64,000 bases of DNA, taken from the NCBI GenBank assembly GCA_050084985.1, contig JBITNC010000001.1:141050001-141114000 (forward strand). The letters are read 5' to 3'. This document shows positions 1 to 37,200 of the stretch, one piece after another. Each line of letters starts with the position of its first letter. The stretch's first letter is position 1. The notes under the pieces are model-generated. The model ran no database searches. It was not told where the DNA came from and saw only the letters and a list, made by a program, of their open reading frames with translations. Origin of the DNA: Nageia nagi (taxonomy: Eukaryota; Plantae; Pinophyta). A program made the position numbers and the translations under genes.

Positions 1-3000
1 GGAATGAGTCCAATTTCATGACAAGTCGTGAATGATATGAGATTGAAACTGAGACAAATTCTTATTACACAATTGTGAAATTGTTTTCCTTCAAGGCATA
101 AAGATAGCTTATTTAGTCGATGCTCCTTCTTCTCTTCCTCTTGGGTGACTTCTTCTTTCAAACTTGGCTCCTGGAGCATGAGACACTCAACATTATAATT
201 CGACCCTCTATGTTGTTCTCTCTATGATGCTAGCCAAACCAGGGAAGGTCTTGGAGGAGTATGGGAACCTTGGTGATATCTTCCACATAACCTTTGTTCT
301 TTCTTCAATTGTTCTACATCAATCCTTAATTCGTTCACCAAGTAGTCTACATCATCTCTTAGATCCCACATGGCACCTCTTAGATGCTCAAATTCTTCAT
401 CTTGCTTGCGCTGCTCCATGTCATAACACATCCTCCATAATCTTTCTATAGAATATTCAGAAGTATCAAATCTAGGAGTACTTGGTGAGCGTGAAGGATC
501 TTCAGGATCTTCAAGTTTTGAATGGACCATTTGTACTGGTCAGCTTGACTATTTATATGATTTCTTGTGTTCCACTGAGGTTGAAATACTGGTTGCATTG
601 GCTGTGATTGTTGTCTAGAAATGATAGCTTGAACCAGTGCTTGTTGTAGGATTGAATTTAAGTCAGCAGTCCCTCCTATCTAAGGCTAAGGTGGGGTTGG
701 ATTCAAATATGCTTGGCAACCTATCTGAGGCGGCATATGTATAGGTGAGAGATATGGTTTTCCTTGAGAGTTCCATGATATACTTGCTAACCCCCATGGT
801 GTTGTTATTGCCATGACTGTACAGTGTGATGGGAGTGGAAACCATCAAAGAATATGCTTCCAAGACTTAGAGTGTATGCTTGCAGTGTCTTGGTAAGAAA
901 GGATTGGATCCCTCGTTTGGTGTATGCATTTGTTTAAAGGACCCAAGTGAAAAAGAAAATAAAAGAGAAACAACTCGTACTAAATACAAGATAGTTCAGG
1001 CCCTCCTTCTAGCGCCAATTAATGTTGGTGTGTTTTTCTTTCCTACCCTGGATAGTGAGAAAAATGCCAACACCTTAGGTGAAAGGACATTACTCCCTCC
1101 CGCTATGAGGACTGGTTACCCCAAACGTTAGCTCCATGACTTGGTGAGGATAACTCAAGGAACAGCTAAGATGTTTGAAGTTGCCACTAACATGAATCAT
1201 GTGTGGATTCAAGGACTCAGATTGTCTTTGTAACCAAGCTAAGTTGTTTCTAAAAAATGTTGAAAGGGAAACACGGGTGCAAAAATTGAAGAAAAAGTGT
1301 AAAATAAAATAAAGAAAAAAAAAGTAGTGGAAAGACTGTGGGCAATCGGATGCAATGGTAGGCATGCATACTCACAAGCTTGGGATAAGGTCCTCAAGAG
1401 TCGACTTGCTAGGTCTCGGCATAGGTTCCACGCACCCTCAATCCGTTCCACTAGCCACCAACATGAATGGTCTAGTGGAAGGAGCGTGAAGTTGTGGCAA
1501 GGATGGAATAGGATGGGTGGAGGTGACACTCAACAATCCGGGTGAAGTTCCTACTATGAGCGATTTCAACAAGACATCTTGAGGTATTCAAGCCTAAAAT
1601 TGTAAATGACAAAATATCACCAACAATATGCTAATCAACCACTTCATAAGATATACAAGCACTCTCTTGTCCACTCCACACGGAATTTACAAGATGCACC
1701 AAGTGATGTAAATTAACACAAAGCAGTGATAGAACAAACTCCACAACACTGTCAATCATTCATTCAAATTTGGCATTACAACATGAGAAGCATATCATCA
1801 CAATTGCACTAACATATACCACACTTAACAACTTAGAGAATTTTTGGTCTAGCAAGCAAAATTTCCTTTCAATTCTTAAACGTGTCAATCCCCCCCTTAC
1901 AAATGAATCAAAATGGGGTATAAATAGTTTTAGGAGCAAACAACATGTTGCCCTAACCCTAATCACGAGTCTCAAGAAAAATAAATGTGGTCCAATAATA
2001 ATACATCACATGGCGTTACAATATTTATTCCAAGACTTGTGGGAGCAAATCCTCATTCATCATAAAGCTGTACAAAATTTAATGAGTTTTTAAAATCCAA
2101 TTCTAAAATAAAATTGCAATAAATAAAATAAAAGATAATTGTTGTGCTTGCAATAGCCCGCCTTAATGACTCCTAGGTTTATTCCAGTTGGTCCATCTTC
2201 TTTGTCTCTTCTGCTGACCTCGAGATGTGTTCATGCTCAAACTTCCGCGCCTGATCGTCAGAGACCAAATGTTGGGGCCTGGCGCATGCCCAGAAAAGAC
2301 AAGATTTTGTCTTTCTAGAATAGGTGCTCAACCCGAGGATGCATGTTCTTCGTCCATCGTTTTCCTATGTTCCCCACTCGTCCATCTCGACTCTTCATGC
2401 TCAAGATGAAACCTAAACTTGTCCATTTTACCTTCTCTAGTGTCCCAGCTTGCCGATTTTGCCCAACGAACTCACTCAAAGCTCCTCCAAGCCTGGCACA
2501 TGATTTCAAAAGACAAGATTGTCTTTTTGAAACGCGCTCCAAGTTCTCCAACTGCTTCAATCTAGGCGCATGGTCCAGAAAGTCAAGATTTGGTCTTCCT
2601 GAGGCATGCATTGGGTTGCAGGTGGCCATATTTGCTTCATTTTGGTCTTCTACCCCTAGGACTGTCATATTTTCAAGTTTGTTCCGTCCTGGTGCCTTCC
2701 CAAGCTTGGCACATGCTCCCAAAAGTCAAGAATTTGTCTATTTGAGGAATGCGCCAACCCCTCTAGTCATGCTGGAGCAAGATATGAGCTTCGAGACTCC
2801 ATGCCTTGGCAAAATTTCATGTTTCATCCCGACTGGATGCCTTCCTGGGCTTGGCACATGCTCCAAAAAGACAAAATTCTATCTTTTTGAGGCATGCACC
2901 AACCTTCTAGGTGTGTGCACTTCGATCTTCCAAGTCTCAAGTCCATCCTAGCGGCCTCATGGCCTGGGTGCATGCTCCCAAAAGACAAACTTTTGTCTTT

Positions 3001-3518
3001 TTGAGGTGTGCACTAACCTTGAAATATACTAAGTGGGCCTTCATTCAATCTTGGATGTCTCCCTAGGCTTGGCGCATGCCCCAGAAAGACAAGATTTTGT
3101 CTTTTGAGAGCATGCATTAGGTCTAGGAGTGACCCAATTTGCTCTTCCAGACTTAAACTCCAAATCAAGCATCTTCCTAACCCAAGCGCACGTCCTAGAA
3201 AGACAAAATCTTGTCTTCCTGGAGCATGCGCTAGGTTTGGGGTGGTCCAAATCTGTCTTGCTTGGCTCCGACTCAACTCAAGTTTCCCAATTTCACCTGA
3301 ACTCGACTTAAATACCCATACTTAGCTATTTTTTAGGGTTTTAACTCTTCAACACAATTGGGTTGTTTGGACACACTTGGATGATGGGCTGATAGGCATG
3401 ATTTTTGAGTTTGGCCTGAGACAAGGAGAGGATGTATTAACTAGGTACCAGACGAACGTAAGTTGTAGAGGGTCCCTAAAATTGTGGAATTTTGGGGTGA
3501 GTTGTGTAAGGCACAACA
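1..3518 (-). mobile_element. Ty3/gypsy-like LTR retrotransposon (non-chromovirus, Tat/Ogre-like): 5' LTR 1023-3518 (~2.5 kb), PBS 1000-1017, internal region running off the window start
   Basis: On the minus strand the LTR starts TGTTGTGC (3518) and ends CACCAACA (1023), followed after 5 nt by PBS-like TGGCGCTAGAAGGAGGGC. Its 5' terminus resembles that of the solo LTR at 29982. Lineage is inferred from LTR size and PBS type. Confidence 0.7.
2280..3260. repeat. Array of ~8 palindromic units (core AAAGACAA-N3-5-TTGTCTTT with GCATGC-like flanks) inside the LTR
   Basis: Cores near 2295, 2507, 2579, 2721, 2865, 2980, 3085 and 3198 with variable spacing. Confidence 0.85.
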
Positions 3519-4266
3519 AGTAGTGGATTCTAAATAGTAAAAAAAATTCATTTTCCAAATGTCAAAATGAGTGAGAGTGAGGGCCATGAATCAGAAAATG
3601 AAATGGAACAAAACATGCAACAAGAACAAACACAAGCTTTTGGAGGGGGCAACAATACATCCATTTATGAGTGTCCATCTTTGTTGTTAAAACCCTATGC
3701 CAAAGGACCATTTGACCCAAAAAAACATTTACTTCAGTTTGTTACAAACAATGACAAGGGGAAAAAACTTCAAAGGGGAGGGAGAAAGTGGACTTGCCAC
3801 TTTTCTTCCACTAATTTTTCTAGAAGTTATATCAAGGTTGTGTCACACCTTAAAAATAGATCAGGGTCAAGGGTGAGAGTATGCAAAAGCATGAATAACT
3901 TCCAATTTGCCAAAAACTCTAGGCTTGACCAAGGGGACACCCTTCAAGCACCAGGAAATCCAGTATTTAGTCAACCTAGCCGAGCATATCCTATTACACT
4001 TGCATCATCATCTTACACACAGCATTGTTCTTCTAGTTTACCGAGTCCTAATTTAAGTTCCAATTGTTGTATATATGATTGAATTGATGATAATAATGAA
4101 TTAGAAATAATAACATTTATAAAATCTAAAAATTTCAGAATTTTTTACTAGTATCATACTAGCCTCTCCCCCTGCCCTGGGCACTCCCTAAAAATGACCT
4201 CAATCGTTCCCTTTCTTGGGAACGCACTCCCACACTTTGTAGCCCCTGACACACCTTGGAACCTTG
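3519..4266 (+). mobile_element. Internally deleted hAT DNA transposon: BED-finger N-terminal transposase fragment (ORF 3567-4082) plus right end
   Basis: ORF contains KWTCHFSSTNFSRSYIKVVSHLK..G..VRVC (degenerate BED zinc finger). Ends GGAACCTTG (4266) with a subterminal region like that of the hAT end at 30416. The left part is displaced by the LTR insertion. Confidence 0.7.
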
Positions 4267-5279
4267 GATATTATACATCTAGCATTGGGAATATGATCTA
4301 TGGATTATGATTACCACAATTTGAAATGATATCATCTTAAAAACAAACAATCTAACATAAAACTTATAAAAGCAATAGCTAAGAGGATTAGCACATTAAC
4401 CAAACAAGAGATCTCATTCTATAGCCATGCTGCTTAAAATTCAAACTAAGGTGCTTCCATAAATTTGTAGTACATCAAGAAACAACATGTAGGCATAAAA
4501 CTCCACGTAGATAACTAGAAGATAAAAAAATTACTATTATTATTTGTTGTTATGTAGTTGTTATTTTCATTAACAAAAATTTGAGAAAGTAATGGTTCTT
4601 AAAAGAGTTAATAATCTTAACAAAAGGAGATGATGAACTTTTACATAATTGAAATAGGAAATTCCTTCATTAACATGACTTATTAGATTCCTTTATAAGC
4701 TTTAGCTTGGTAACATCCATCTCTTTGTACTAATATTCTAATTATCCATCTTATGGTATTACAGATTATACTTCACTAACAAATATATATACATTCTCAG
4801 AAATCATGACATTATTTTCTTTTTTTGGTAATGTTTGGAACTTTGGGTACAATATAGGCATGAACATGTGTGTAAGCACATGTATGCATAAAATATACAT
4901 TTACCTATATTTGATCCGGGAGGATCATACTCAGCTTTATATGAAGGATTTTCTGTTACAAATTTATCTTCAAAGTTGAACACCAATGGACTTTCTCCAC
5001 ACCTTTGAAGGCATTCAAATGTCACCATAACACATTCAATATAATATGAACAACCCTTTCTTCAATGAACAAGCTGATGTCGGAGGAAGAAGAATACACC
5101 AAAAGAAACTTTGTTTCCAATTACACAACAGATTCAATCCTCTACATGGAGAACATAGCGAAAGGCTTCTCCATCTCATACCTGTTATACATCTCTACAC
5201 AAACTTGGCTGTACACACTTGTATCAATACAATTTTTAATATTTTGAGCTCATATCTTGTATTGCTCTAAGTTTATCAG

Positions 5280-8200
5280 AGCGCGCACGGAAGCTAACAC
5301 TTTTTTTACTAGAGACACTAAGACTTCTACTTATCGATCATTACCTATCGATGATCCAAATGAGCCCGAGAGCATATATTTATAATAGCTCAAATGGGAT
5401 CAACGATTTACAATGAAAATACTCCAAATCTAAATTTGGGCCGTTAAAGCTATACCATACTTGCTACAGTGTTTTGAAGTGACTTAAAGTAAGCCACTAT
5501 CACATAAAGTTATTCCACTTACAATCCAAGTGGATAGGTAAAGCATATGATTCTTCCACTCACACCCCGAGTAGATAAGGATGCTATTACAGGCAATCCC
5601 GACTTGATTTAACCGAATCAAATTGTTGGCCATTATTATTTTAAGTGGGTTAAAGGCCCACCATGCTTCATCTTATGGTATCATGGGATACCATTTCGTG
5701 GAAACTTCACGAGAGAGCATTTCGGTTAGGCTTTCGTCATCAAGGATTCTTTGTTCTATAATCCACCGCCATTTCAACAACCACGTAGCGTGTATATCTA
5801 TCATTAAATTAAAGTGGTCATGAGCACTCAGATCATGAAATTCCAGTGGACATTAACTAGCCTGCAACCCATATTTGATGAACCATTCTTCAAACCAACT
5901 TGGTATTTCTTCAGAATTCTCACGTAAATGTGTACCTAAACCACTAAAATAATTGTGAGTAAAAAAAGAATTTTCATAACCAAGTAAGGTAAAGAAATGT
6001 CCCTTGTATTGTTCATAAGTCAGTTTGAATCCGCTTATTCTGACTTCTTGATTGTGATCCTAGGTTGGCCATTGATGGATGCCTCTAATTCTATTTATGA
6101 ATATAATGGCTCTTCCAATAAAATAATTTTCATCAATATGATTCCAATATTGCTTACAATAAATATCACCATGATGGAGTAAAACTCTGGAACCCATTGA
6201 ATGATTTAACACCCTGGTATGTATCGGATATGTACCTGGAATATTTATAACTCTACCATCTGGTAGAAGAATACCAATTCTCTGTTCAATGAACAACTCA
6301 TGTGTGTACCAGAAAGTTGGATTTCTTAAATCAATATTATGAAGTTTTGGTAATGTGGACACCACTTTCCAATCAGCTGTCCAAGGTCTAACCATGTTTA
6401 TATGATATTTTCTTGTTAAATAGTCAGCTACAAAGTCTTTGATGCCAGGGATATGTTCAAAGACTATGTCGTAGTCATCAAACCACATGCTCCATTTGAG
6501 CATTCTGCTACTGTCTGATGCTTTTTCAAATTTCTTTTGCAAGAAACTCTTCGTATTGTTAAGGTTTGATCTCAACACAAATTTCACAGACTGAACAAAA
6601 AATTGAAAGGCTTTTATAGCTTTTATGGCAGCCAAAATTTCCTTATGAGAAGATGGGTAATTCAGAGTAGAACCTGAAAAACTGCCTAATGTATACCTGC
6701 ATATCTTTTCTCCAATGCTGGTTTGCTCTTTAAGAACGGCTCCCCAAAATTGATCACTTGCATCTGTTTCAATAATTTTTAAGCCTGATCCTAGTAATGT
6801 CATGGGAGGAAGCTTAGAGCATTTTTCTTTTATTCTCTTAATAGCACTTGTCATTTCTTCATTCCATAGAAGAGCATTTTTTGTCAGTCTGATGTTCAAA
6901 AGTTTAGGATCTGCTGCTATAGCCTGATAATAACCTGAAACATAATTTACACATCCCAAAAATCTTTGCAATTGATTCAGGGATAATATTTCATCAGGAA
7001 AATTTTTAATCTTTTCAAAAATGAGCTTATAGTTGTATCTGTCCTCCTCTAATTTGTAGTCCAAGGAATTCAATTTCTTCTTTACAAAACACTAACTTCT
7101 TTTCACAAAAAACAAGAACTTGCTCATAACAAACTTTGTAGAATTCTTATAAATGTTGTACATGTTTTACATCTTTACTAAAAACAAGAATGTTGTCTAT
7201 GTACACACAAATGAAAGAACTGAAAGGCTGAAATAATCCGTCCATTACCTTATAAAAAATAGGAGGTGTTGTCTTTAACCCAAAGGGTAACACTGTCCAT
7301 TAATAATGGCCTCCTGGAACCACAAAAGTTGTCTTTGGCCTATCTGCAGATTTAACACTGATCTGCCAGAAACCTAATTTTAAATCAAACTTTGAAAACA
7401 CGTTAGAATGTTTCAATCTTCTTAATAACTCATCCTTAGAAGGAATAGGATATTGGACAGGTATGACATACTGATTTAGAGGCTTATAATTTAGAACTAG
7501 TCTCTTTTTACCTCTTGCTTGTTCAGATCTTATGTTTACATAAAAAGCACAACATGCCAATGGGGAATTAAACTTTTCAATTAAGTCTTTCTGTAGAAGC
7601 TCTTGAATTTCAATTTCACATTCTTTTCTTAAAGATGGACTAAACCCAATATGATGTGCCTTGAATTTGGGTTCTATCATCTTACCATCTTTTTCAACCA
7701 ATTTTAATTCTATACTGCATTAATGTACTTTGTGGTGCCTGAATGTTGTAGGGTCTTCTGAACACAAGTCCTTTATTTTTTCAATAATTTCATTTAAGTT
7801 TGAAGAATTCCAATTAACGAACTTTGTGACCCAATCCAATTTCTTTGCCTTAACAGGAGGATTCCAGATAGGGATTATTGATTCATAAAAGCTTTTCAGT
7901 GGATATTTATCCCTTTTAATACTATACAATTATCTTCTGTTAAACTAAAAGGCCTCAGTTTCATAAAATTGTCATATCCAATCATAAAATCATAATTTTT
8001 CATTTCATGCTGCACTAGTTTAAAAACTATGATCTCATTTTCAAAGACAAATGAAACTTCTGCAAACAGTGTGGAAACTATTTTTTCATAATTAAAAGAA
8101 AGACTTACTTTGTCTTGTATCCATAAGTCTTCTAGAATGGAGTTTCTTCTGGCAAGGCTACACTCACCACCTATATCAATTAAAGCATTCAAACTATAAG

Positions 8201-8880
8201 ACTTGAATCCATCAATTTTAACAGTCATTTTACATACAGGGGAGTAAGAATGGTTAACAACATTAATATTATGTTTTGCCAATTCTGAAGCATTTAGTTC
8301 TGTCTCATAATCAATTGTTTCATTGTAATCTGCTTCTTCTTTTAAGGGTTCCTCGAATTCCTCCTTTGCTTTCTGCAAAAACTTATGGAATTTTTGTATT
8401 CTCTGAAGTCTCCATTCTAACCTTTCTGCAATACTCTGTTTTCTGGGGACTTCTAAACAATGTTTTTCTTTTTGAAAAAAACTTGTTTTAGGCTTCATTT
8501 AGCCTTGATTGATCATGCATTCATTGCATGCACAAAACTTGTAATGTTTTGTATTTTTAGAAATCTATACAGAAGTACTTACAGGTGATATTTTTGAATT
8601 GCTGGTGGACTCCACTAATTCACCACGTTTCTGTGATTGGTGTGCAAGAGTCTGGAAATACTGATTTTATATAGTTCCGATTCAAATAATTCTATACATT
8701 TCAATCACAAATCCTGTACAAATTCTAGTTCAGATTCAAAAAGTTCTTCCTGTATAGATTCAGATATTGATTTTCAGATTCATATGTTTTCCCTTGGAAA
8801 ACCATCAATTCTTGATTTATCACAGCAAATCACCCAAACTCAGCAAGAGTTGTCATAGGTACCATACTATGATCTAGCAA
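5280..8880 (-). mobile_element. Endogenous pararetrovirus A (Caulimoviridae), decayed: Cys-rich region, aspartic protease, RT, RNase H, C-terminal florendovirus-ORF2-like domain, promoter/leader
   Basis: AP: LNALIDIGGECS. RT: AFYVNIRSEQARGKKRLVLNYKPLN, FSKFDLKLGFWQI, W..LPFGLK, VYIDNILVFS. Linker EKIKNFPD..QLQRFLGCVNY. RNase H: IETDASDQFWGAVL..ICRY..GSF..KEILA. No integrase. Several stops and frameshifts. Confidence 0.92.
5355..5384 (-). promoter_or_regulatory. Putative pgRNA promoter core of virus A (TATAAATA followed by TCATTTGGA)
   Basis: Minus strand TATAAATA at 5384-5377, then GCTCATTTGGA, resembling the CaMV 35S TATA..TTCATTTGGAG arrangement, placed after the last viral coding segment. 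Confidence 0.6.
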
Positions 8881-8882
8881 AG

Positions 8883-10956
8883 AATTACAACGGATTAATA
8901 GATTAGCTCATGAAATTACAGATAGGTCTCTTCGGATGGCAAAGATCGACCAGACTATACATAGTATACTTACAGACTTGAATTCCAGTTTGAAACTCAA
9001 AGCCAGCGTACCACAATATACACTTCAGGGGCTTTAACTCTGAGAACCGAAATCCTTACTAAGACTCTCTATACTCGGCTACTTGCTCTGCTACTAGCTA
9101 TCTCTTAGCTATCTATGCTTCAAATGAAGCTTACAAAGCTTATTTATAGTTTTTACAAAACCTTTTAATGGCTCAAATGTAATCCTTTTCTAACAAGATC
9201 TTAGCCGTTCAAACCTTCGCAATGAAGTAACAGTACTTTGACAAGACAAAGTTATTCATTCATATGTCGAGTGGAAAGCATAGAATATTAGAAAGGAATC
9301 TTAGGAGACAGTGAAGCTCCACTCTGTGAAGAATTCCAGCTGTCACTATCACTGTCGTCTCCAACTTATCTGCTTGTAGATGCCCTTTCTAGAGGTTGTG
9401 CCAAATAGTTTCAAAGCCAAGTGGTAGCTTCTTGTTCTAGTGATCTTAATGAGATGGGAGCGAATCCACATGTGATGTTGAACAAATATGATATCCTCCA
9501 TCTATTATTCAATTTTATTAAATTAAAAGAGAAACTGGAGGACCATTCGAGATGATATCTACAGATAGTTGATACAACAATAGCAAGTGTTTAGACTTCT
9601 CATGGATTGAGAGAACTGGGTTCGCATCTTGATATAAACTGTTGAGCAAACTCATTCCATAAGCAACTTCGAAACTTCACCTGCCATGTCCATCCAAGCC
9701 TGCAAACAAGGTTAAAATACAAATTTAACAAAACATCATTGTCCAAATGGACAATAGTAATAGATCCTACCTTTGACTCTTGATTAGTTGTCACATTAAA
9801 TCCTTGGGCCTGTAAGTCGATAGAAGCAAAAGCATTTCTTCAGATAAATTCTCCATTCATGCCACTACGAAGAATATTACTCTAGATCTCTATAGGAATC
9901 TCTATAAATGAAACATCACTCCTGTTAATTGTAGAAAAACCTATATTGTGCATTAAACATCCTGGAAGTGACAAACATTGAGGATTGCAGCTTAGCCAAT
10001 CTGAGACTATATTATTGCATCTTGCAATATGTTCAGCAATGTATTTAAATCTTTGAAAATACTCCTGCCACCTTAAGTACTTATCTCTCCCTTTTTTTTT
10101 ACCCTGGTTCTTTTTCCTTAAAGTAATAAACCTAGTACAGTCAATTCAAATGATGAATCTGAGGAGATGCATAAGTTTTAGAGCAAACTTGTTGAGAGCT
10201 TTTTTTACAACATATATCTCTTGATCAGAAGAGATCCACTTTTGAACACTGTCATCAAATACTCTTGATAAGTATTCACATACTCATTCTCGTTCTCTAT
10301 CACACACAAAACTACACCCCAACTTGTGTCACAAGCATCTGTATATAATATATAATCTTCGCTTTCTGGAACAAACAGTTTGGGTAACTTTTGACATTTC
10401 TATTTTATGTTCTGTACTGCGACAGTATGATCCACCCCCCATGCAAAAAAGTTTTTCTTTTTGAGTAAATTCTATAGGAGTTCTTGGTCTTTAGCAGCAT
10501 AAAGATAAAAATTATTGATGTAATTCAAAATCCCTAAAAAAGCTTATAACTGCTTAAAACTCATGACATCTGGGAATCACTGATTTTTTCAATGATGTGA
10601 GGTTGAACTTTGAGTTCAGAATTCTTAACATCCATGCCAAGGAAGTTGCAGGAGGTTGTACATAACTGAATTTTTTATGCTGAAATAACAACATTTTCTT
10701 GTGCTTTTTGGAAGAATTGAGTAAGATGGATAAGATAAGATTGGAGATTTGGACTGAATATTAGTATGTCATCTATTTATATACAAAGAAAAGATGACAT
10801 GTGAGAAAAGATTTCAACCATATGAGCTTGATAATAACTTGGAGCATTCATCAAACTGAAAGGCATTACTGTCCAATCAAAATGTCCAAAGGGACATGAG
10901 AATGTTGTCTTATGAACATCTGTTTCTCGGACTCTGATATGGTAAAATCCTGTTTA
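8883..10956 (-). mobile_element. Endogenous pararetrovirus B, left arm of the inverted repeat (partial RT, RNase H, C-terminal extension, promoter, leader); the more decayed copy
   Basis: Reverse complement of ~10983-13078 at roughly 90% identity by eye. ORF 9600-9794 matches part of ORF 11570-12514. Confidence 0.92.
9118..9148 (-). promoter_or_regulatory. Virus B promoter core in the left arm (intact TATAAATA then CTTCATTTGAAG); the right-arm copy at 12800-12807 is mutated to TATTAATA
   Basis: TATAAATA at 9148-9141 on the minus strand with a 35S-like downstream motif, located between the end of the polyprotein and the PBS. Confidence 0.6.
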
Positions 10957-13086
10957 TGTAAATACTTCTCACAATTTGATTGTAAATCAAGATTTTACCA
11001 TATCAAAGTCCGAGAAACAGATGTTCACAAGACAGCATTCTCATGTCCCTTTGGACATTTTGATTGGACAGTAATGCCTTTCGACTTGATAAATGCTCCA
11101 AGTTATTATCAAGCTCATATGGTTGAAATCTTTTCTCACATGTCATCTTTTCTTTGTATATACATAGATGACATACTAATATTCAGTCCAGATCTCAAAT
11201 CTCATCTTATCCATCTTACTCAATTCTTCCAAAAAGCACAAGAAAATGGTATTTTTCTTGCAACATCAAAAATTCAATCATGTACAACCTCCAACAACTT
11301 CCTTGGCATGGAAGTTAAGAATTCTGAACTCAAGGTCCAACCTCACATCATTGAAAAAATTCAGTCATTCCCAGATGTCATGAGTATTAAGCAGCTACAA
11401 GCTTTTTTAGGGATTTTGAATTACATCAATAGTTTTTATCCCTATGATGTCAAAGATCAAGAACTCCTACAAAATTTACTTAAAAAGAAAAACCTTTTTG
11501 CATGGGGGGTGGATCATACTGTCGCAGTATAGAACATAAAACAGAAATGTTAAAAGTTACTCAAATTGTATGTTCCAGAAAGCGAAGATTATATATTTTA
11601 TACAGATGCTTGTGACACAGGTTGGGGTGCAGTTTTGTGTGACTGAGAACGGGAATGAGTATGTTTGTGAATACTTATCAGGAGTATTTGATGACAGTAA
11701 TCAAAAGTGGATCTCTTCTAATAAAGAGATATATGCTGTAAAGAAAGCTCTCGAAAAGTTTGCTCTGAAACTTATGCATCTCCCCAGATTCATCATTCGA
11801 ACTGACTGTACTAGGTTTATTACTTTCAGGAAAAAGAACCAGGGTAAAAAAGAAGGGAGAGGTAAGTATTTAAGGTGGCAAGAGTATTTTCAAATATTTA
11901 AATACACTGTTGAACATGTTGCAGGATGCAATAATATAGTCTCAGATTGGCTAAGCCGCAATCCTCAATGTCTGTCACTCCCAAGATGTTTAATGCACAA
12001 TCCATGTTTTTCTACAACTAACAGGAGTGATGTTTCATTTACAGAGCTTCCTATAGAGATCCAGAGTAATATTCTCCGTAGTAGCATGAATGAAGAATTT
12101 ATCAGAAGAAGTGTTTTTGCTTCTGTCGACTTACAGATCCAAGGATTTAATGTGACAACTAATCAAGAGTCAAGGGTAGGATTTATTACTATTGTCCGTT
12201 TGAACAATGATGTTTTGTTAAATTTGTATTTTAACCTTGTTTACAGGCCTGAATGGACATGGCAGGTGAAATCTCGAAGTTGCTTATGGAATGAGTTTGC
12301 TGAACAGTTTATATCAAGATGTGGACCCAGTTCTCTCAATCCACGAGAAGTCCAAACACTTGCTACTATTACATCAACTATTTGTAGATATCATCTTCAA
12401 TGGTCCTCCAATTTCTCTTTTAATTTAATAAGATTGAATAATGAATGGAAGATATCATATTTGTTCAACATCACATGTGGATTCGCTTCCATTTCGCTAA
12501 GATCACTAGAATAAGAAGCTGCCACTTGGCTTCGAGACTATTCAGCACAACCTCCAAAAAGGGCATCTACAAGCAAACAAGCTGGAGACGATAGTGATAG
12601 TGACAGCTGGAATTCTTCATAGAGTGGAACCCCATGGTCTCCTAAGATTCCTTTCTAATATTCTATGCTATCCACTCGGCATGTGAGCGAATAACTTTAT
12701 GTCTTATCAAAGTACTGTTACTTCATTGTGAAGGTTTGAACGGCTAAAATCTTGATAGACAAATATTACATCTGAGCCATTGGAAGGTTTTGTAAAATCT
12801 ATTAATAAGCTTTGTAAGCTTCATTTGAAGCATAGATATCTCATAAATAGCTAAGAGATAGCTAGTAGCAGAGCAAGTAGCCGAGTCTAAAGAGTCTTAG
12901 TAAGGATTTTGGTTCTCAGAGTTAAAGCCCTCAAAGTGTATACTTTGTGTTACGCTGACTTTGAGTTTCAAACTAGAATTCAAGTCTGTAAGTATACTCT
13001 GTATATTCTAGTCGATCTTCGCCATCCGAAGAGACTTGTCTGTAATTTCATGAGTTGTTCTGTTAATCCGCTGTAAATTGGTATCA
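10957..13086 (+). mobile_element. Endogenous pararetrovirus B, right arm (partial RT, RNase H, C-terminal extension, promoter, leader, partial tRNA-Met PBS)
   Basis: KYFSQFDCKS..KTAF..WTVMPF..NAPS..IYIDDILIFS; caulimovirid linker QPHIIEKIQSFPD..KQLQAFLGILNY; RNase H TDACDTGWG..KEIYAV..FIIRTD..RYLRW-like KYLRWQEY..EHVAG..N.VSDWLSR. No integrase. TGGTATCA at 13079-13086. Confidence 0.93.
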
Positions 13087-13089
13087 ACT

Positions 13090-14450
13090 ATTGCAAAGAA
13101 AAATAAGAAGACCATAAAGGGACATAGAAGAATGTAAAATCAATGGAGGAAATCCTCAACAAATTGCAAAAGGAATGTGAAGAGTTGCAAGTCTCCACAC
13201 AAGAAGGTAACACCAAAACCCCTATTGAGATTAGAGCACAATAACAACTACAATAGTCATGTATTGATATGTTACTTTGGGAAACACAGAAAAATAGCAT
13301 AGAAAAAAGTGTGTGGGCACCTGGACACTCATAAGAACTACACATGCAGATTCTGCAAACAACTTCAGAAGCTTTGCTGAGCTCTAATTTCATTGATAGC
13401 ATTTTGAAGAATAACATTATGCTAGATAATTTGTTTCTTTCTCATTTATAGAAGGGGAGAAATACCTAATTGCTTAAGTGCTATTTACTCTAATGATAAT
13501 TAACTAGTTACAAGTGTTTAACAAACACACTCACAAATAATATCTATTATGCGGCATGCCTAATGAAGTATGTTGTGCCTCAATACACAACATATCCATC
13601 CCCTAGGAAGGCTTTGTCCCAAAGCTAGCAAAAACTAAAAAGTTAAGCAGGGCTAATTTAGAGTAGCATTACGGTGAATGATCATATGGGACATCCCAAC
13701 ACTGCACCTTTTTATTCATCATACCACAAAAAGTTAGTTCATGGGAGGATATGAACCTAAGACCTCACAAAGACTACACACTAACAGATAACATCCTAAC
13801 CAAGAAACATTTAGCTTATAAGAATATATCGATGGTAGATGAGGCCCTTTTTTTAAGCCCTTCTGCCTTTCACAACATTGATAGGCCCCGATGGACCTCC
13901 ATAAAAACCTTGACTTCCCGTGCAACATCCTCTACTACAAACTTTGTCCCCTCTATCCTGTATCTCTGCACTGCCCTACTTCTTTGATGTTGCCCTACGA
14001 TTGTTGCCTCCTTTGCTCTTCTGTTCTGATCTCTTCTTGCTCCATTCTGTTTGGAAACATGTCTAGGTTATCTTTTACCATCTCTTGCATCACCAACCTA
14101 CAATTTGGAGGTAACTCTTTTAGTGATTCTTGGAAAACCAACTCCTACTTCTGTACAAAAACAGAAATCTAGGAGGTGTTCTCTACAAAGTAATCACCCC
14201 CATACTGTCCAATCTAGCGATGAATCCAAAATTACCTTCATTAACAGTTTTCTTGTTACTTTCAGAATCAACCACTTTAATTTCCCATCCAGGTAGAGAC
14301 TTGATGGTGAAGTTTTGAACAGCCTTTTCAAAGTTTAGAAACCATTTCGTTTTGATTGGTAGAATATGTGCCCAAACAATATAACCATTGTAATCCAAGA
14401 ATAACATCAACACCCCCTATGTACACCACACAAAACCCGTTCATTTTGTA
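13090..14450 (-). mobile_element. Internally deleted, decayed Ty3/gypsy remnant with probable 3' LTR (~13092-13592)
   Basis: Minus-strand fragments IGGVDVILGLQWLYCLG (protease region), VFQESLKELPP, FQTEWQEEIR (cf. LQPEWIIEAR in ORF 54150). PPT-like AGGGGATGGA before TGTTG at 13592. TATA-like CTATAAAT near 13450. Confidence 0.6.
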
Positions 14451-15194
14451 CTCTGCCATTGGATGCTCAAGATTATGCTTATCTTTTGAGCTTGTATCTT
14501 GTCTCGCTTTTGGATGCTTGATTCAGATCATACACTTGCATCTATTTCTGGTTTAATTTCTATTTTTATGGATGTTCACATCTCACAATGTATTGGATTT
14601 TCGGTTTTGGTGTTGTCTCCCGATTTAGCCCCTCATTCCATGTCAATATTCTAAAATGGTTCAAACTTCAAAGCAATTAAAACTTACTACAGAACATCTG
14701 ATAGGTATCTATTTTCGCATTAACAAAGTTTAAATCAAATTCTCTCATCAAAGTGGCTTAATTACAATAGTTGGATCGAAGGTAATAAAGATAATCATGC
14801 ATGAAAGTAAACAAGCAAATCACATACATGTTTATAATAAAAATGATTGGATAGACTTGGAAACAGAACTTGGTTCTCATGGAATTGCTAGTGCATTTTA
14901 AAATAATATCCTCTTCGCTAAAGCAGACCGCACTATTTAATCCACCCTATTTCAATTGGAAATCTAAATATTAAAAATAGAACTGTTAACAGATACATTA
15001 AATCCACTTATTGTGAATCTGTTATTCATTTGCCTCCTACTCTTGTCTGCTTATAACCATGTTAGTACTTTCAGTCAGATCTCTCTTTCTTACCCAGTTA
15101 AAATTCGGTGAGAAAAAATTGGAGCCTATCCAGAAACTCATATGAGATATCTTTTACAGTTTTAGATTTAAACTTAAATTCAAAATTGTAAGGT

Positions 15195-15350
15195 TTTTGG
15201 CTTTTGTTTTTCACCTTAAGGACTAGTCTTAGCATGTTAACAGAAATGTACTCCATAAAATTGTCTGATTTTTGGCTTTTGTTTTTCACCTTAAGGGCTA
15301 GTCTTAGCATGTTAACAGAATTGTACTTCATAAAATTGTCTGATTTTTGG
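15195..15350. repeat. Tandem duplication, ~75 bp x2
   Basis: TTTTGGCTTTTGTTTTTCACCTTAAGG(A/G)CTAGTCTTAGCATGTTAACAGAA... repeated at 15195 and 15270. Confidence 0.9.
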
Positions 15351-16161
15351 CATTTGAAAAATTTAGGCACTCAGCATGCATAACCAAGTAGTAAGTCAGA
15401 CATGCTTAAAATCCTAATGGTACCTGCAGATGAGTGTTAATGGGGCTCAGTAAGATCCTCTTCTATATGGAAGTGCCAGTAATCCAGCCATGTTTACTGC
15501 AAGCACGTGGAAGCTGATTTGGTGAAGAGTCTGAAGGTAAGTGCTCCGTACCTGAAGTTTTTACGAAGCTCTGGCATAATATAAGTAATCCATACTATGA
15601 CACCAATGAATATAAAAGGCAGGTTCCCAACAATTAATTTCACTCACCCTTGTCACAGGAAGTTTGGACAATTATTCCTTGTTTTTTCAATTCTTGTTTG
15701 GACAGCATAGTTCTTTTTCTCTGATAGGAAACATTTTTCTATTTGGGCCATCTAAATTCTTCCTAGGTTGCTTTTTGGTGACAGGGTTCTTCATAGATTA
15801 AGTCCAAGTATAAGTCCATATATTCCAAAGTCAATCATGTATTGGAAGCTGATAATTTAATTGTACTGTTATAAAGCCCATGCTAAATATATTTTCAAAC
15901 TTGCTGATTTCTTTGCCTAATTATTGGCATGGTTTAAGACAAATAGCTAGATAGGTACCTTCCGATTTGTTTTCTAAGTTCTGACTCTGAACCAGTTCTT
16001 GTAACCATTCAGAAGCAACAAGAGAAAAATAAGAGTCAATTTTAAAAGTCTTTCAAATCTCCAAAATTAGCATAAAAATAAGAAATACGCCTAATCTTGT
16101 ACTCTCAAGTTTTTAGATGTGAAGTATATAAAAGTTCTGCAGTGTAATACTATATACTAAC

Positions 16162-16296
16162 CGTGGCCCCATATGATGTATGGCTTTTGCTGCTGCACGC
16201 ATGTCTTCAATTGTCTCCAATGGCTCTCTGCCTACTAATGTTGAAGCTTCCTTCAAATTAGGCGTAACGATCTCTGATATCGGTAGAAGCTGTTGC
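16162..16296 (-). CDS. TH1: TH1 coding exon 5 (135 nt)
   Basis: actcag|G CAA CAG.. [44 protein letters not shown](R) |gttag. Confidence 0.94.
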
Positions 16297-19200
16297 CTGA
16301 GTATACAACCAAAATAGGTATTGTATTTAGTAGGTACTAACTAATATATAATAAAACCATACAGCATGCTTCCAAACCGAAGAAAAACGCATAACTGATT
16401 TACTTTGGAAAAATCACTACCCCTAAAAGAAAAACATCTAGAAAAATCGAAAAAAATGAAATAACTTCTTTTTCTTTTTCTTTATTAATATAATAAGCCA
16501 AATTTAACACAAACAGACAGTATACAGAATTCTGAAGATATGCCATAAAGCTAATTCAAAATAAAATTAAGTGTAATTACTTCTACACTGAACAAATTAA
16601 AAGATTAATTGAACTTTATATTTGCAATCTTTCTATTTGTGCCTATTTTATTTGACATGTGCATTATATCCACATACAATCAGCAACTCACACAGATTTG
16701 TTGGCATCTGCAGAGGAACGAGCAGTCAAAATAGTGAAGCTGACATCAAGGCAAGTTGGCAGGTAAGATGAGGAGATTAAAATATACATAATCATTCAAA
16801 GATCACGCCAAGGCAAACTAAGAATGTTATTACAATTATAGTAGGTCATACTATTCAATTGGAAGCCACCATCACAAGTGCGAAGCGAAGGACATCATGG
16901 AGGGTGATAAGAAAATACCAGTTGTCTCCCCTACTCAGAGAGAGGAAGCCCCTGGGCTTTACACTGCAAGAAGGCGAAGCATGTATGGTTATAAGAGAGG
17001 AAAGAGTTCCAAGTAACATTTGGATCCAAGCACTATTTACAAATATCTTCTAGTTCTAACTACTGTGTTGCATATTATTTCAGACATCATTTGACACAAG
17101 CATAGAACCTTTGAATTCAAACTCTGAAACTTCTTGAATATTGATTATAATTAATGAAATGAAATCTTATAGACATCATTAACACATGACCATCGTAAAA
17201 GTGATGATATAAATTCCACTTAATACTTAGTCTCATTAACATCAACTTCTTGTAAACTTGCAGTGTTGGTGGTAACATTGTTGCAAAGCCAATCTTAGCT
17301 GCTCCAAAGGCAAAAGAGTCGGATTGCATCAGCATGTCAATGATAACCCCTCAAGAAAAACAAAATCCAATGGTGAGTCATGAGAGTAATCCCATTAAAT
17401 ATACTCACATTGTTGAAAAGGAAGGACTCGGTAGCATCAATGAAACTCTGGATGCCAAAATCAAAAATGGAAAATCTTACTTTCATCACATGTTAATATC
17501 ACTCTCCCCAAATTAAATGCAGATAAATGAGGTTATGGGATGCATCGATCAGGAGGTAAAACAACTGAAGATTTGATCCAAGAAACAGCAAGAAGAAATT
17601 CTCCAAAAGCTGGCTGTTTATGAGAGATATTTATTACACATTGCTTCTATCACGACCTGTTTAACCATTGACATGAAAAAGAGCATTAAGCATCCTTGGA
17701 AGGTTCAAATTTGGTGATAGAGATCAACAGCGAATAAGTGGCAATCTGGTTTTATAACACCTCATTTCAATCAATCAGAGGAATTGGATGAAGCCATGTG
17801 GCACCACCAACAATGCAAGTCTACAAGAAGTTGATGATGTAAATGAAACTAAGTATGGAGTTCAAATCATCACTTTTATATTGTTCATGTGCTAGTGAAG
17901 CCTACAATACCATATTTCATCAGATATAGTCAAGAGTCAAGATGTTCCAGAATTTGATTTCAAAGGTCATTTACATTTCATTGCTGTATCAAATCAAAAA
18001 ATGTCTGATTGTTCAAGCATCCACTAATACTCCATTCCTGATGCAATATACATGCTATGAAATAACTTTTTCTCCATCAAAAAAGTAGAGTTACATGATA
18101 ATATTGGATTCAGTAATTGCCAGCATATTGGTTTGAAAAAGCATCAGGGATTATTGTTAGAAATGCAATACCAACATGTATGATCATAAGCGAGCAGCTA
18201 TTTTTGTCAAATGGAGGCTCTGGACAGCTGGAATTACCAAGAAAGACCTCCCTCTCTAATCCTCATATCTAGTTAGTTGTGTCCTATAGAAGAATGAAAA
18301 GATGATGTGTCCCTGGATATCCTCACTGCTTCTTCTATATACATACATGCATACACAAACATATGCATTCATAGAAATTATAAACATGCATATAAACCCT
18401 TTGGGAGGCAATAAATTAGTTTCTAAGAAATTAAAATATTCAAGAACTCAGTATTTCAATAGAAATAATGAGAAACCTGTAAATCTTATCCAAATTATAA
18501 ATTATCAAAACTATCACAAAATGTTTGGGAAGTTGGGAGAAAAGTGGATGTGGAAATTCTCAAATGATGTTAACAGAGTCCCAAGTTCAAATCCTCCCCC
18601 CTCACATGTTGGTGATGCATCTCAAATGTCACATGATGGTGACATGTTTCAATAGCTCTACAAACCACGTTGTAAAAGAGTTGGGACCCTTTCAACACCC
18701 CTTCTTAACCATATCAAAAAAAAAACATCAAAACTCGTTAAATAGTTGAATGATGTCCTATGCACATTAATGAAAATTTAAAAAAAATTCCTTAATCATA
18801 TTTTGAATGGTGCGATAAGAGTAAAACAAAAAGCAAAACACCAGAAGTCATGATGAACTTATACAAATAAATTCATACCGAAGTCCATCAAGTATAGCAG
18901 GACTAGCTAACACATCTCCACTTGTTGCTACCATAACAGGGTCAACTACTAATGCTGCACACATGTAGATGAATAGATTAAGAATGAAAATTGAAATAAA
19001 GGAAGCAACCACACGTATTTCTTAAATAGCATACCTCGAACTGGATATTCTTTCAAGCTTCTGCATAAAGCTTGAATAATGCTGTTGATGGAAGCATACC
19101 TGTCTTTACCTACAATTTGTTTGAAAATTTGTAAAATTATGGTTCTATATAATAAAGCAATGTTGTTCAACACATATTCCATAATGCCAATAGATTCCTT

Positions 19201-34200: not shown

Positions 34201-37200
34201 ATTTAATGTTGAGTCTTCGTTTGAACTATGACAAGTGGGAAATTGGTTGTTTGATCGATTGGGTTCCTTTTGTTGGATGATAAGTTGAGCTTTGTGAAGC
34301 ACTCTTGGTAATTTCTCTTTAGGTTTTATAGATAGTTAGATGATCTAGTAGATCAACAGCTCGTGCTTTACTTTGGATGGAGATTGTTGAGTTGCACTTC
34401 TACTTGTTTCATGGTGGGCGGTGGGCCCCTCTTTCTTTTGGTCTGCCCTTCTCAAAGTTGTCTCCTCTTTTCCTTTGTTGTTAGCAGTTACCATTGATTG
34501 GTTAGCATCTTTTTTGCTTCCTCGGGTTCTCTTACTTTTGTGATTAGCATTTGTTGTTGATCGAAGGAATCAACTATCAATACTCTTTCGAAAACTTTAC
34601 CTTGCTTTCTTTTTATTTTAGTGCTCACCATTGATTTTGCAACTAATGAAGGACACTTTTCTAAGATATTGCCCTTTCTTCCGACTTTTAACTCCTCTAG
34701 ATTGAAAACCCTCGTGGGGATAAGAAGTGGGAATGCTAATCATACATGATAGTTGTGTTTGATAGCTAGTGCTCCCTTCTTAGCCACTTAATGTAATTGT
34801 ATCCTTTCAACTTGTGTGAAAGAATTTCACTACAGGTCCTATACAGTTACACACTACCTATAAGACCAAAACAACCAATCAAGAAAAATTATCCTCCAAT
34901 AGATGGTTAATAAACAAAACTATTAAAGCCATAGTCTCTCATTTTTCAAAAACCTCACAACATTGAAACATTTTACAAATAAATCCATTCAATACTTTGA
35001 AATCAAAAATGAAAGAACTAACACTAACAAAATTCCTAAACAACCAAGATCTCTTGAAAACTCACAATACACATCTAACAAACTCACAAATAAGCTCACA
35101 AAGTAACTCAAGATGTAAAGTGGTTCTTCCAACTAGGAGTACATCCACTAACTAAATATTTACTTCAATCACAAATACAACTCTCTTACAATCCTCCTAA
35201 TCTCAACACCTACACTTCTATCCTATAGCATAACTTTACTCCACAAATTGGTGTGATCATAAAGAGTGAGCCTTCTATTTATAGGCCAAAATCTCTCTTT
35301 GGATCATCCTTTTATCCAATGTACAAAAACATCCTTTTACCCAAGAGGCATGCTCATGACATGGAGTGTAAAACAAGTTACATTATCATATTCACTTAAA
35401 TACTTAAGGTATCAAATGATACCCTTAAGTATTAGTGAATTTACTTAAAAGATTTAATACAAACCTTTACAATAATGCATTATACATTCTAACACTCCCC
35501 CTTAATGCAATATTGGGATAGAACGAGTAAGAGAAAAGAAGAAGAGAAAGTAAGAGAGTTCTCCAAACAAATACAATGAAGATGAAAACTTTTTACATAT
35601 TTGTGAAGTAAGAAAGATCTAGTTTGAGACTCACTACTTTGCCAAATACAATCATTAACCACAACCGATTTCAATATACATGAAGTAGTCATCCAACTGG
35701 AAGTCATGAAGAGTTTCGAAGAGCTGCATACTTGAGGTAAGTAACCTGCAATCTCAAAGGAACCTGCAAGTCATAAGCAGCTCAAATAACAAGATCAATT
35801 AGATGCATCATATTCATATCAACAAGCATAGATGAATCACACAAATGCCATCATGAACTGATCAATGGTGCACTATAAGTCATCACGAAGATGCCATGCC
35901 AAAAACTTATAGTCACCTGCTGTATATAAAACATGTGTTGATTATCATTACAAAATAGAACATGCACATACAAGTTCCTTACATATGGATAACTGAACAG
36001 TGCCAAAAGACACATAAGAGCTCTTCACACATGGATAACTCAACAGTGCTAGATTGACCAAAAATAAAGTATGCACATACGAGTTCCTCACACATGGATA
36101 ACTGAACAGTGCTAGATTGACCAAAAATAAAGTATGCGCATACGAAATCCTCACATATAGATAACTGAACAGTGCCAAAAGACACATAAGAGTTCCTCAC
36201 ACATGGATAACTGAACAATGCTAGATTGGCCAATTTGTACAAGTTCCTCACGCAAAGCAAACTTACCACGAAGGTGTACAACAAAATCAACACTATACAA
36301 CATAAAATCTCTTAGGGGTGAAGTTGTCATCACAGACATGAATTCAACACAAGAATTCAAACTTTACTCCTCTTTGAGGGCAACTTCACCAACCTGATAG
36401 CATCCCTAAGCTTACAAAACATAACTTCCGAGAGGGGCTTGGTGAATAAATCAACAAAGTTCAAAGTGGATGGACAATACTCCAGGTGTATGATGCCATC
36501 AAGAACCTTCTCTATGATAAAATGGGCATGGATTTCCACATGTTTTGTTCTCTGATGGAACACTGAATTCTTAGCCAAAGAAATAACCGAATGATTGTCT
36601 GAAAAGATCAAAGATGAGCCACCTTGCTCATACCCAATTTTTTTCAAAAGATGCCTTAACCAAATGGCTTCCTGACGTGCAATAGACAATGGCACGATAT
36701 TCGGCTTCTGTGGTGGAAAGAGAAACAATAGGTTGCTTCTTGGAAGCCCAAAAGATAGCACCTGAACCAATGCTAAACACATATGCAGAGGTTGACTTCC
36801 TATCATCTTTATCTCCCCCATAGTCAGAATCTGAGAATCCAGAGAGAACAAATGAGAGCAACTTGGAATACTTGAAAGCAAGATCCTTAGTCCATGCAAC
36901 ATACCTCAAGATTTGCTTAACAGCATTGAGGTGCTCATCATATGATTTTTGCATGAATCGTGCCATCAGATTCACTGCAAAGGCAATATCTGGCCTAGAT
37001 ATAGTCAAATACAAAAGACTACTAATTAATTACCTATAAGTTGTAGCATCAGCTAACTAAGAGTTGGAGCTTAGAGAAACAGTGATTCCAAAAGAGACTG
37101 AGATTGCAGCATATCTACACTCCTCCATTCCAAATTTCTACAAAATGTCTGATATATACTTAAATTAACTGAAGTAAGTACAATCCTTGTATTGATACAC

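Follow-up and report, generated by a model that had tools for sequence, protein, structure and literature searches.

A decayed caulimovirid palindrome in a conifer genome and its possible origin from a folded-back minus strand

Gene content of the locus

The window, a 64,000-nt stretch of the genome of the conifer Nageia nagi, carries an inverted duplication of about 4.2 kb at 8883..13086, with two arms around a short loop. A palindrome with a loop of about 26 nt and its turn inside the reverse transcriptase (RT) had been described in a first-pass annotation, and both self-BLAST and a gapped alignment of the arms confirmed that it is real. Self-BLAST returned a single inverted match, 8885-13076, with 89.9% identity including gaps and a score of 5657 bits. 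The right arm (10983..13078, plus strand) contains RT, RNase H, a downstream ORF without Pfam match, a promoter and a leader. Its inverted partner in the self-alignment, the left arm (8885..10956, minus strand; from 8883 if two uncertain end bases are counted), enters the RT of the same virus, hereafter virus A, about 10 codons into the conserved block and continues through RNase H, downstream ORF, promoter and leader. The loop (10957..10982, 26 nt, plus strand) is unduplicated RT sequence in frame with the right arm. In the tested frames, the left arm had 11 stop codons and the right arm had 3, together with one frameshift near 11636.

Virus A is an RT-RNase H-promoter fragment of caulimovirid type that begins inside RT; this origin had been proposed before and was upheld by Pfam (RVT_1, RT_RNaseH) and by the tree. 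RT is followed by RNase H, with no integrase or long terminal repeats after the RNase H, and no direct repeat of at least 40 nt was found in the element. Among the best 8 of 29 matches, none had integrase domains and 7/8 had Peptidase_A3. In the tree, which took in 27 of 80 extant genomes and was drawn midpoint-rooted, virus A fell with the caulimovirids and apart from Ty3/gypsy (100/100), without a close neighbour among the 45 rows; its best full-length match stood at 48%. Two metagenome scans yielded no relative of virus A (0/131 and 0/325 candidate stretches). The ORF after RNase H had no Pfam family at E<=1 and gave 3 weak matches among 1.84 billion representatives; an F-box resemblance seen by eye was unsupported by Pfam. 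An Rfam search of 4000-16500 gave no match.

The left arm is joined directly to a second caulimovirid, virus B (5380..8884, minus strand, the left limit being approximate), in which Pfam identified A3 protease, RT and RNase H, with a downstream ORF. The RTs of viruses A and B share 38% identity over 127 residues and lie apart in the tree, as distant relatives. An apparent contig joint between opposite strands, 7474-10966, was read as RT homology of the two viruses. The right flank (13087..13700, no strand assigned) is host DNA or the start of the next ORF of virus A: it has no repeat in the window, tblastx against 80 viral genomes gave no better than E=0.039, to one of them, and its Markov composition score fell inside both control ranges. 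Further to the right, five exons of the thiamine biosynthesis gene TH1 have GT-AG borders; the last in the window (16164..16301, minus strand) has 91% identity to Araucaria TH1 and is followed by a GT donor. TH1 residues 221-540 had no credible match within the window. The virus cluster probably lies inside the TH1 intron opened by the donor of exon 5.

Turn, outer ends and divergence of the arms

Read on the top strand, the loop is in plus sense. The Pfam RVT_1 alignment begins at residue 1 at 10960, tblastn of P0001 starts at 10957 on the plus strand versus 10953 on the minus strand, and the alignments with all 80 extant genomes start in the first three residues of the loop. No loop sense had been given in the first-pass annotation. 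An inverted microhomology of 4 nt, read directly in the sequence, pairs 10953..10956 with 10983-10986 (no strand assigned) and is a candidate fold-back joint; the loop measures 26 nt when one unpaired base beside this pairing is allowed, and an ungapped tool gives 29 nt. Folding of the minus strand at the turn (z=-2.1) gave a best structure that differs from the proposed fold-back stem, and neither supported nor located the joint.

Directly after the right arm lies TGGTATCA (13079..13086, plus strand), the first 8 of the 12 bases of the tRNA-Met primer-binding motif, which has no counterpart to the left of the left arm. The minus-strand gap of caulimovirids sits at the Met-tRNA site, according to the text consulted of PMC5902531. 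The position is typical: the distance from the RT motif to 13079 is 2119 nt (80 extant genomes: median 2007, range 1496-4299, 57/80 at 1500-2500), and the TATA box lies 266 nt from the arm end (49/80 extant genomes at 150-400). The chance of TGGTATCA at that coordinate is about 2e-4 for an 11-position window. The match is limited to 8/12 bases, compared with 12/12 in 78/80 extant genomes, so that the 8 nt of primer-binding site previously assigned to the right arm stand as to sequence and place, but as an incomplete motif. By its position, 13079 is a likely tRNA-Met primer site. Among the contigs listed for 4500-13600 and 8650-9350, there was no second virus A copy across this position, and none of the 6 contigs in the latter region ran through the primer-site-equivalent end of virus A.

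The left arm had been said to begin at the equivalent of 13078. This holds within 0-2 nt: the end is certain only to 8885 (the equivalent of 13076), because 8884 mismatches and a relative of virus B aligns over 8747-8884, up to that base. The left arm thus stops 0-2 nt before the primer-site position and is not proven to reach it. Both outer ends fall within 8-10 nt of one viral coordinate, and within 0-8 nt of the position that fits the tRNA-Met primer site.

Gapped alignment of the arms, proposed in the first-pass annotation as the way to fix their endpoints and divergence, paired 8885-10956 with 10983-13076/13078. The arms differed at 180 of 2072 aligned sites (8.7%; 142 transitions, 38 transversions, K2P 0.094) and in 27 indel columns, with an even mismatch density of 10-22 per 200 nt. 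In RT and RNase H, third codon positions accounted for 21/75 of the differences (28%), versus 51-89% in 20 extant virus pairs; these were the pairs less than 22% apart among 42 that passed a shared-word filter, and 79/80 of the stretches were open. The closest extant pair had 86/97 differences at third positions (Fisher p=1e-16 versus the palindrome arms). The pN/pS ratio of the arms was 0.7-1.1 unweighted and 1.2-1.7 transition-weighted. In the frame after RNase H, third positions were under-represented (8/50, p=0.01); this frame may be misassigned, and the main codon test was therefore limited to RT and RNase H. Transitions were concentrated in CG/CHG contexts (76/142, versus 137/648 unchanged C/G sites), which is what decay through host methylation predicts. 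The arm differences look like neutral decay with no purifying selection, and the pattern supports arms that would have been near-identical at insertion, with a small earlier difference possible. Such decay argues against an artefact and against two diverged virus variants.

A single DNA run, sharing 0.07 of the words, was listed in a search of sequencing runs; RNA runs were absent from the list, which has no bearing on expression. A 246-nt contig of run X1, which may be the source sample, was 100% identical to the right arm at 12760-13005 and differed from the left arm by 16 bases and 13 gap letters.

Origin of the palindrome

We favour a one-event origin, to which we give a probability of about 0.55: a free viral minus strand with its 5' end at the primer site would have turned back on itself, served as template for a copy as far as that end, and then been captured in the chromosome. 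The copying may have been done by viral RT acting on the nascent strand or, almost as probably, by a host repair polymerase acting on gapped virion DNA; the two would leave the same product. From the arms, loop sense, end positions and neutral decay seen directly at this single locus, we infer the following steps. On the bottom strand, a minus strand would have begun at the primer site (13086/13078), crossed the leader, the promoter and RNase H and entered RT, an order that would place its synthesis after the first template jump. It would have ended or broken at about 10953, where its 3' end could have paired with the 4-nt match 26 nt back. A polymerase would then have copied the strand toward its 5' end and halted 0-2 nt before the primer junction, which would account for the lack of a primer site on the left arm. 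A chromosome break next to virus B would have taken up the hairpin, which replication would later have opened. The 8 nt at the right end could be a primer remnant, primer-site sequence of the viral plus strand or, in part, microhomology.

The bottom strand must be the self-folding one, since there the loop is minus-sense and continuous with the right arm, the first to be made. If 13079 is the primer site, the copy ends at the 5' end of this strand (0-2 nt short of the 13078 equivalent), and the arms show no third-position excess, as expected if they were identical at origin. The snap-back of a minus strand put forward in the first-pass annotation had been read along the top strand, where it fails because the loop is plus-sense; transferred to the bottom strand, it fits. 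On the bottom strand the 8 nt lie at the 5' (primer) end and would not be a read-through copy of the tRNA. Loop continuity, and two ends near one coordinate bearing TGGTATCA at typical RT and TATA distances, favour fold-back of one molecule. In yeast, fold-back inside free single-stranded DNA followed by capture at a break, with 2-11 nt of microhomology, is described in the text consulted of PMC11724301.

Several points count against this reading. The 8/12 motif and the lack of a second copy over the site among the contigs listed make 13079 a candidate primer site only. An RT that copied a strand with its primer in place should have gone on into the primer, but no primer sequence is present in the left arm; 8 nt kept at the 5' end would require RNA capture or another source. 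The 4-nt match is weak, and the right flank may still be viral. One end near the primer site is less surprising given that, in the text consulted of PMC526188, endogenous pararetrovirus ends cluster in the intergenic region. Two-molecule joints were common in yeast, identical barcodes being found in only 16% of 342 inversions (PMC11724301, text consulted), which also counts against a single molecule.

A switch between two molecules would take the top strand as a minus strand that began at the primer site, reached RT, passed to a second minus strand 26 nt on, perhaps by the same 4-nt match, and copied that strand back through 8 nt of primer. It accounts for both ends, a left arm without and a right arm with 8 nt of primer site, and has the frequency of two-molecule inversions in yeast (PMC11724301, text consulted) on its side. 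We hold it unlikely; it requires that two molecules were stalled or exposed no more than 26 nt apart, and the one-molecule form of this top-strand polarity is ruled out by the plus-sense loop. At a single locus, sequence alone does not separate this switch from fold-back of one strand. It is also rather improbable that the fold-back took place in the chromosome, where an integrated fragment ending near the primer site would later have broken in RT, folded, been copied for about 2.07 kb and joined to virus B. Fold-back repair is a general mechanism and two viruses are clustered and rearranged at the locus, but in a chromosome the template does not end at the primer site, and a halt within 10 nt of the insert edge would therefore be chance (roughly 10 in 2000, by our estimate), and local fold-backs in yeast are mostly 5-34 bp (PMC11724301, text consulted for both points).

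Insertion of two separate viral fragments head to head is very improbable: although each insert is prone to end at the primer-site gap (PMC526188, text consulted) and two near-identical molecules of one infection would pass the codon test, the inner ends lie just 26 nt apart in a viral genome of about 7-9 kb. Arms from two diverged variants, an outcome that the first-pass annotation had named as telling against its proposal, are excluded by the codon pattern (28% versus 51-89%). An assembly artefact from fold-back reads is hardly credible. Among the 8 pieces and 6 loose ends listed from 108 contigs over 4500-13600, none spans the centre or a junction or covers 13012-13600, and long-read runs were absent from the list; artefact arms, however, would be near-identical, whereas these are 8.7% apart, are biased toward transitions and methylation contexts and carry indels specific to one arm, and the X1 contig matches the right arm exactly, unlike the left.

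Comparison with known systems

Hairpin DNAs were reportedly described by Covey and Turner in the 1980s as transient free molecules in cauliflower mosaic virus (CaMV) replication, with a minus strand said to have its anchor at the primer-site gap and to pass covalently into a plus-sense copy. The conifer locus would share this arrangement; unlike those hairpins, it sits in a chromosome, as a duplex that has been opened and has decayed, and comes from an unplaced conifer lineage. Templated fold-back and distant inverted insertions in yeast (Yu et al., PMC11724301) are alike, in the text consulted, in their short spacer, short joint microhomology and free single-stranded DNA followed by capture, but they have medians of 50-150 bp and consist of host DNA, whereas the conifer arms measure 2.07 kb and probably derive from a viral replication form. 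Inserts resembling rice tungro bacilliform virus (Kunii et al., PMC526188) likewise have ends that cluster in the intergenic region and where replication is discontinuous; in the text consulted these are single ends, not paired palindrome ends, and the word 'inverted' occurs only in the reference list. Endogenous caulimovirids of gymnosperms (Gymnendovirus 1-4 and further OTUs, PMC13308828) come from the same host group and virus family as virus A, which the tree placed at family level; the main text consulted of PMC13308828 mentions no inverted, palindromic or hairpin loci. A literature search, with the 1980s CaMV hairpin papers and the supplements of PMC9868043 outside its scope, found no pararetroviral inverted repeat anchored at the primer site.

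The entry of caulimovirid DNA into plant chromosomes is still called speculative (PMC10377300, text consulted), and the text consulted of PMC9868043 leaves open how inverted repeats that supply antiviral siRNAs came about. The present locus preserves the ends and the turn of what was probably a captured molecule, which makes a replication form, single-stranded or gapped, the likely substrate and suggests a testable signature, namely short-loop palindromes with outer ends at the primer site, whose loop sense reveals the folded strand. If fold-back and capture are true, a viral copying accident can leave the host a ready-made dsRNA template; if a TH1 intron spans the locus, TH1 pre-mRNA would carry a 2.1-kb hairpin. 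A far-reaching version, which we think unlikely to hold as a whole, is that tens of millions of years ago an intron of an essential conifer gene captured an RT hairpin by-product intact, together with 8 nt of its tRNA primer end, and that the hairpin has been transcribed ever since into a dsRNA stem of 2.1 kb. Virus replication errors would then directly and repeatedly give rise to heritable antiviral hairpin loci, which could be recognised across whole genomes as short-loop palindromes anchored at the primer site.

Among the closest counterparts are the transcriptionally competent siRNA areas (TSAs) of tomato, inverted-repeat endogenous pararetroviruses (Valli et al., PMC9868043, text consulted). 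TSAs and the conifer locus are both pararetroviral inverted repeats of hundreds to thousands of bp; TSAs are often intronic, vary in arm identity and are a proposed source of hairpin RNA. A locus of the TSA type would lie in an expressed intron or long non-coding RNA and yield 22-nt siRNAs; the conifer locus lies downstream of TH1 exon 5 with its GT donor, later exons being absent from the window. The text consulted on TSAs gives no pattern of viral regions and places their origin 'at integration or chiefly afterwards'; the conifer locus, known from its DNA, differs in having both ends at the likely primer site, a 26-nt loop and a conifer host. Pararetroviral inverted repeats are already known, and until further cases turn up the conifer locus is one well-preserved example built from known ingredients.

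Geometry and viral identity of the palindrome

The inverted repeat described in the first-pass annotation was borne out by a repeat search of the window, which returned six nested arm pairs with 88–94% complementarity, by self-BLAST, in which 8885–13076 formed a single match of 5657 bits, and by gapped alignment of the right arm (10983–13078, + strand) with the reverse complement of the left (8885–10956, − strand). The arms differed by 142 transitions and 38 transversions over 2072 aligned sites (p = 0.087, K2P 0.094), with mismatches evenly distributed at 10–22 per 200 nt. The unpaired centre spanned 10957–10982, given a 4-nt pairing of 10953–10956 with 10983–10986 and one unpaired base, and otherwise measured 29 nt. 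A mini-hairpin (10971–10983; 5-bp stem, 3-nt loop), off-centre within this spacer, might have caused a polymerase to stall.

The right arm encodes, on the plus strand, a reverse transcriptase (RT; Pfam RVT_1, E = 2e-22) followed by RNase H (Pfam); for the ORF downstream of RNase H, the Pfam search returned no family. The best relatives of the right-arm protein were polyproteins without integrase (38–48% identity). In an RT tree of 45 rows, both arms grouped with caulimovirids and were separated from Ty3/gypsy (100/100), and none of the rows was a close neighbour of the arms. We refer to the caulimovirid forming both arms as virus A. A 17-nt purine run in its RNase H region (11846–11862, + strand), at some 890 nt from the turn, is a possible plus-strand priming tract; it also codes for a motif common to relatives.

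A second caulimovirid, virus B (about 5380–8884, − strand), shares the orientation of the left arm and abuts the palindrome. Pfam matches identify its A3 protease, RT and RNase H, and a further ORF lies downstream of these. Relatives at 80–90% in X1, a sequencing run that may be the source sample, were many for virus B and few for virus A. A 36-nt, 83% match (5502–5537 vs 12668–12702, E = 0.001) links the upstream-promoter regions of the two viruses, despite their RTs being only 38% identical. At 5262–5290, towards the distal end of virus B, the top strand holds a partial primer-site-like word inside a short inverted repeat, which may mark another junction.

Candidate primer site and sense of the loop

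The word TGGTATCA lies at 13079–13086, at the right end of the palindrome, without a mirror at the left end. The left arm is certain as far as 8885, with a mismatch at 8884, and a relative of virus B aligns as far as 8884, so the left end falls 0–2 nt short of the primer-site position. Judged from sequence, 13079 is likely the tRNA-Met primer-binding site of caulimovirid minus-strand synthesis. Its distance from the RT motif is 2119 nt, against a median of 2007 (1496–4299) in 80 extant genomes, and from the TATA 266 nt, against a median of 198 nt (nearest TATA match, 80 extant genomes); an 11-position window would contain this 8-mer by chance with a probability of about 2e-4. The match ends at 8 bases here, compared with 12/12 in 78 of 80 extant genomes. 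No second virus A copy spanning the primer-site position was found among the X1 matches listed. The flank beyond 13086 gave a best tblastx E of 0.039, to one of 80 viral genomes, and a Markov score within both control ranges.

In a self-priming, folded-back strand, the bases left in the loop have the polarity of that strand and run on from its first arm. Translated from the top strand in the right-arm frame, the loop gives KYFSQFD; the RVT_1 match begins at 10960, and the tblastn match of the query protein P0001 begins at 10957 on the plus strand but ten residues further in on the left arm. In 80/80 extant genomes the alignment starts at the first three loop residues. Since the loop is plus-sense on the top strand, and continuous with the right arm, this strand cannot be a self-folded minus strand, contrary to the proposal of the first-pass annotation; its snap-back interpretation stands in part, with the folding strand reversed to the bottom. 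Read on that strand, the 8 nt match the primer 3′ end and are followed by minus-sense promoter, RNase H, RT and loop, then by a plus-sense copy to beside the primer junction, an order that fits exactly the geometry predicted for a one-molecule fold-back.

Decay of the arms and host setting

Had two circulating variants been inserted separately, arm differences should be concentrated at third codon positions. Across RT and RNase H they were distributed 31/23/21 over positions 1/2/3, with pN/pS of 0.7–1.1 unweighted and 1.2–1.7 transition-weighted. In extant caulimovirid controls (20 genome pairs 11–22% apart, from 42 pairs past a word filter, 79/80 genomes), third positions held 51–89% of differences, and the arms differed in third-position share from the closest extant pair (Fisher p = 1e-16). 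CG/CHG context accounted for 76 of 142 arm transitions vs 137 of 648 unchanged C/G sites, the pattern predicted by host methylation decay. Lacking the third-position pile-up of extant pairs and showing methylation-type decay, the arms were thus near-identical on entering the chromosome. Two separate insertions are unlikely. Neutral, methylation-type differences also speak against an assembly artefact; so does a 246-nt X1 contig with 0 differences from the right arm and 16 bases and 13 gap letters from the left; no contig across the palindrome centre was among the X1 matches listed, and we regard such an artefact as highly improbable. The left arm looked more decayed, but not significantly so (11 stops vs 3, p = 0.057), and 23 of 27 gap columns were bases missing on the left.

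Arm divergence exceeds that of both LTR pairs in the window, which belong to a young, intact, chromodomain-bearing Ty3/gypsy element (52770–58943, + strand, 1496-aa ORF, K2P 0.007) and an older copia element (35026–43921, − strand, K2P 0.065). An LTR related to the latter is present, inverted, near 62894–63368. Conifer substitution rates are about 0.7–2.2e-9 per site per year, at which the palindrome would be some 20–70 million years old, an age probably inflated by methylation.

The minus strand carries five exons of the host thiamine-biosynthesis gene TH1 (16164–45584), ordered from right to left and with GT-AG borders; that at 16164–16301 is 91% identical to Araucaria TH1, which makes a conifer host likely. 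Given this exon order, and no credible match to TH1 residues 221–540 within the window, the virus cluster probably lies in the next TH1 intron. The introns, up to about 25 kb and one (intron 2) containing the copia element, fit the conifer long-intron pattern. Introns are known to hold Florendovirus loci (PMC4241990).

In a bottom-strand (TH1-sense) transcript, 1974 of 2096 columns were computed to pair, G-U allowed, with 34 paired runs of at least 21 nt, so the locus could still yield dsRNA. This RNA would pair at 94.2% vs 93.0% for the other strand (longest run 103 vs 71 nt), and arm transitions keeping G-U pairs in it numbered 83 vs 59 that do not, a marginal lean (p = 0.053) expected under either a mutation bias linked to transcription or selection for pairing.

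Formation of the palindrome and known systems

We favour, at a probability of roughly 0.55, a free viral minus strand that folded back, was copied to its end and was captured in a chromosome break beside virus B. This strand would have had the primer site as its 5′ terminus, folded at the 4-nt match and been copied as far as its end, and the hairpin would have been joined into the break, then opened by replication. Both outer ends would meet within 8–10 nt because the template ends there. Viral RT, or a host polymerase on gapped virion DNA, would give an identical sequence outcome. CaMV forms hairpin DNAs. The weak point of the mechanism is the 8 nt, which need a captured primer remnant, a viral plus-strand contribution or microhomology. 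In caulimovirid DNA the minus strand is interrupted by a gap at the Met-tRNA primer site (PMC5902531), pararetroviral inserts preferentially end in the intergenic region (PMC526188), and inversions in yeast arise inside free ssDNA, with capture afterwards (PMC11724301).

A top-strand minus strand that switched onto a second molecule would account well for both ends, but requires two molecules; since only 16% of yeast inversions had identical barcodes (PMC11724301), such a switch is not remote, and we hold it to be a tentative alternative. Chromosomal fold-back after integration seems slightly less probable again, as the copy would have to stop at the insert edge by chance.

The integration mechanism was called speculative in a 2023 review (PMC10377300), and inverted loci go unmentioned in the main text of a 2026 survey of 75 genomes (PMC13308828). 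Searches of an open-access literature library turned up no primer-site-anchored palindrome. A single locus with a candidate primer site defines a signature that is directly testable by genome survey. In tomato, intronic pararetroviral inverted repeats give rise to 22-nt siRNAs; they are described as using viral regions without pattern and as originating at integration or chiefly afterwards (PMC9868043). Whereas no region pattern was seen in those repeats, both ends of the palindrome here lie at the candidate primer site.
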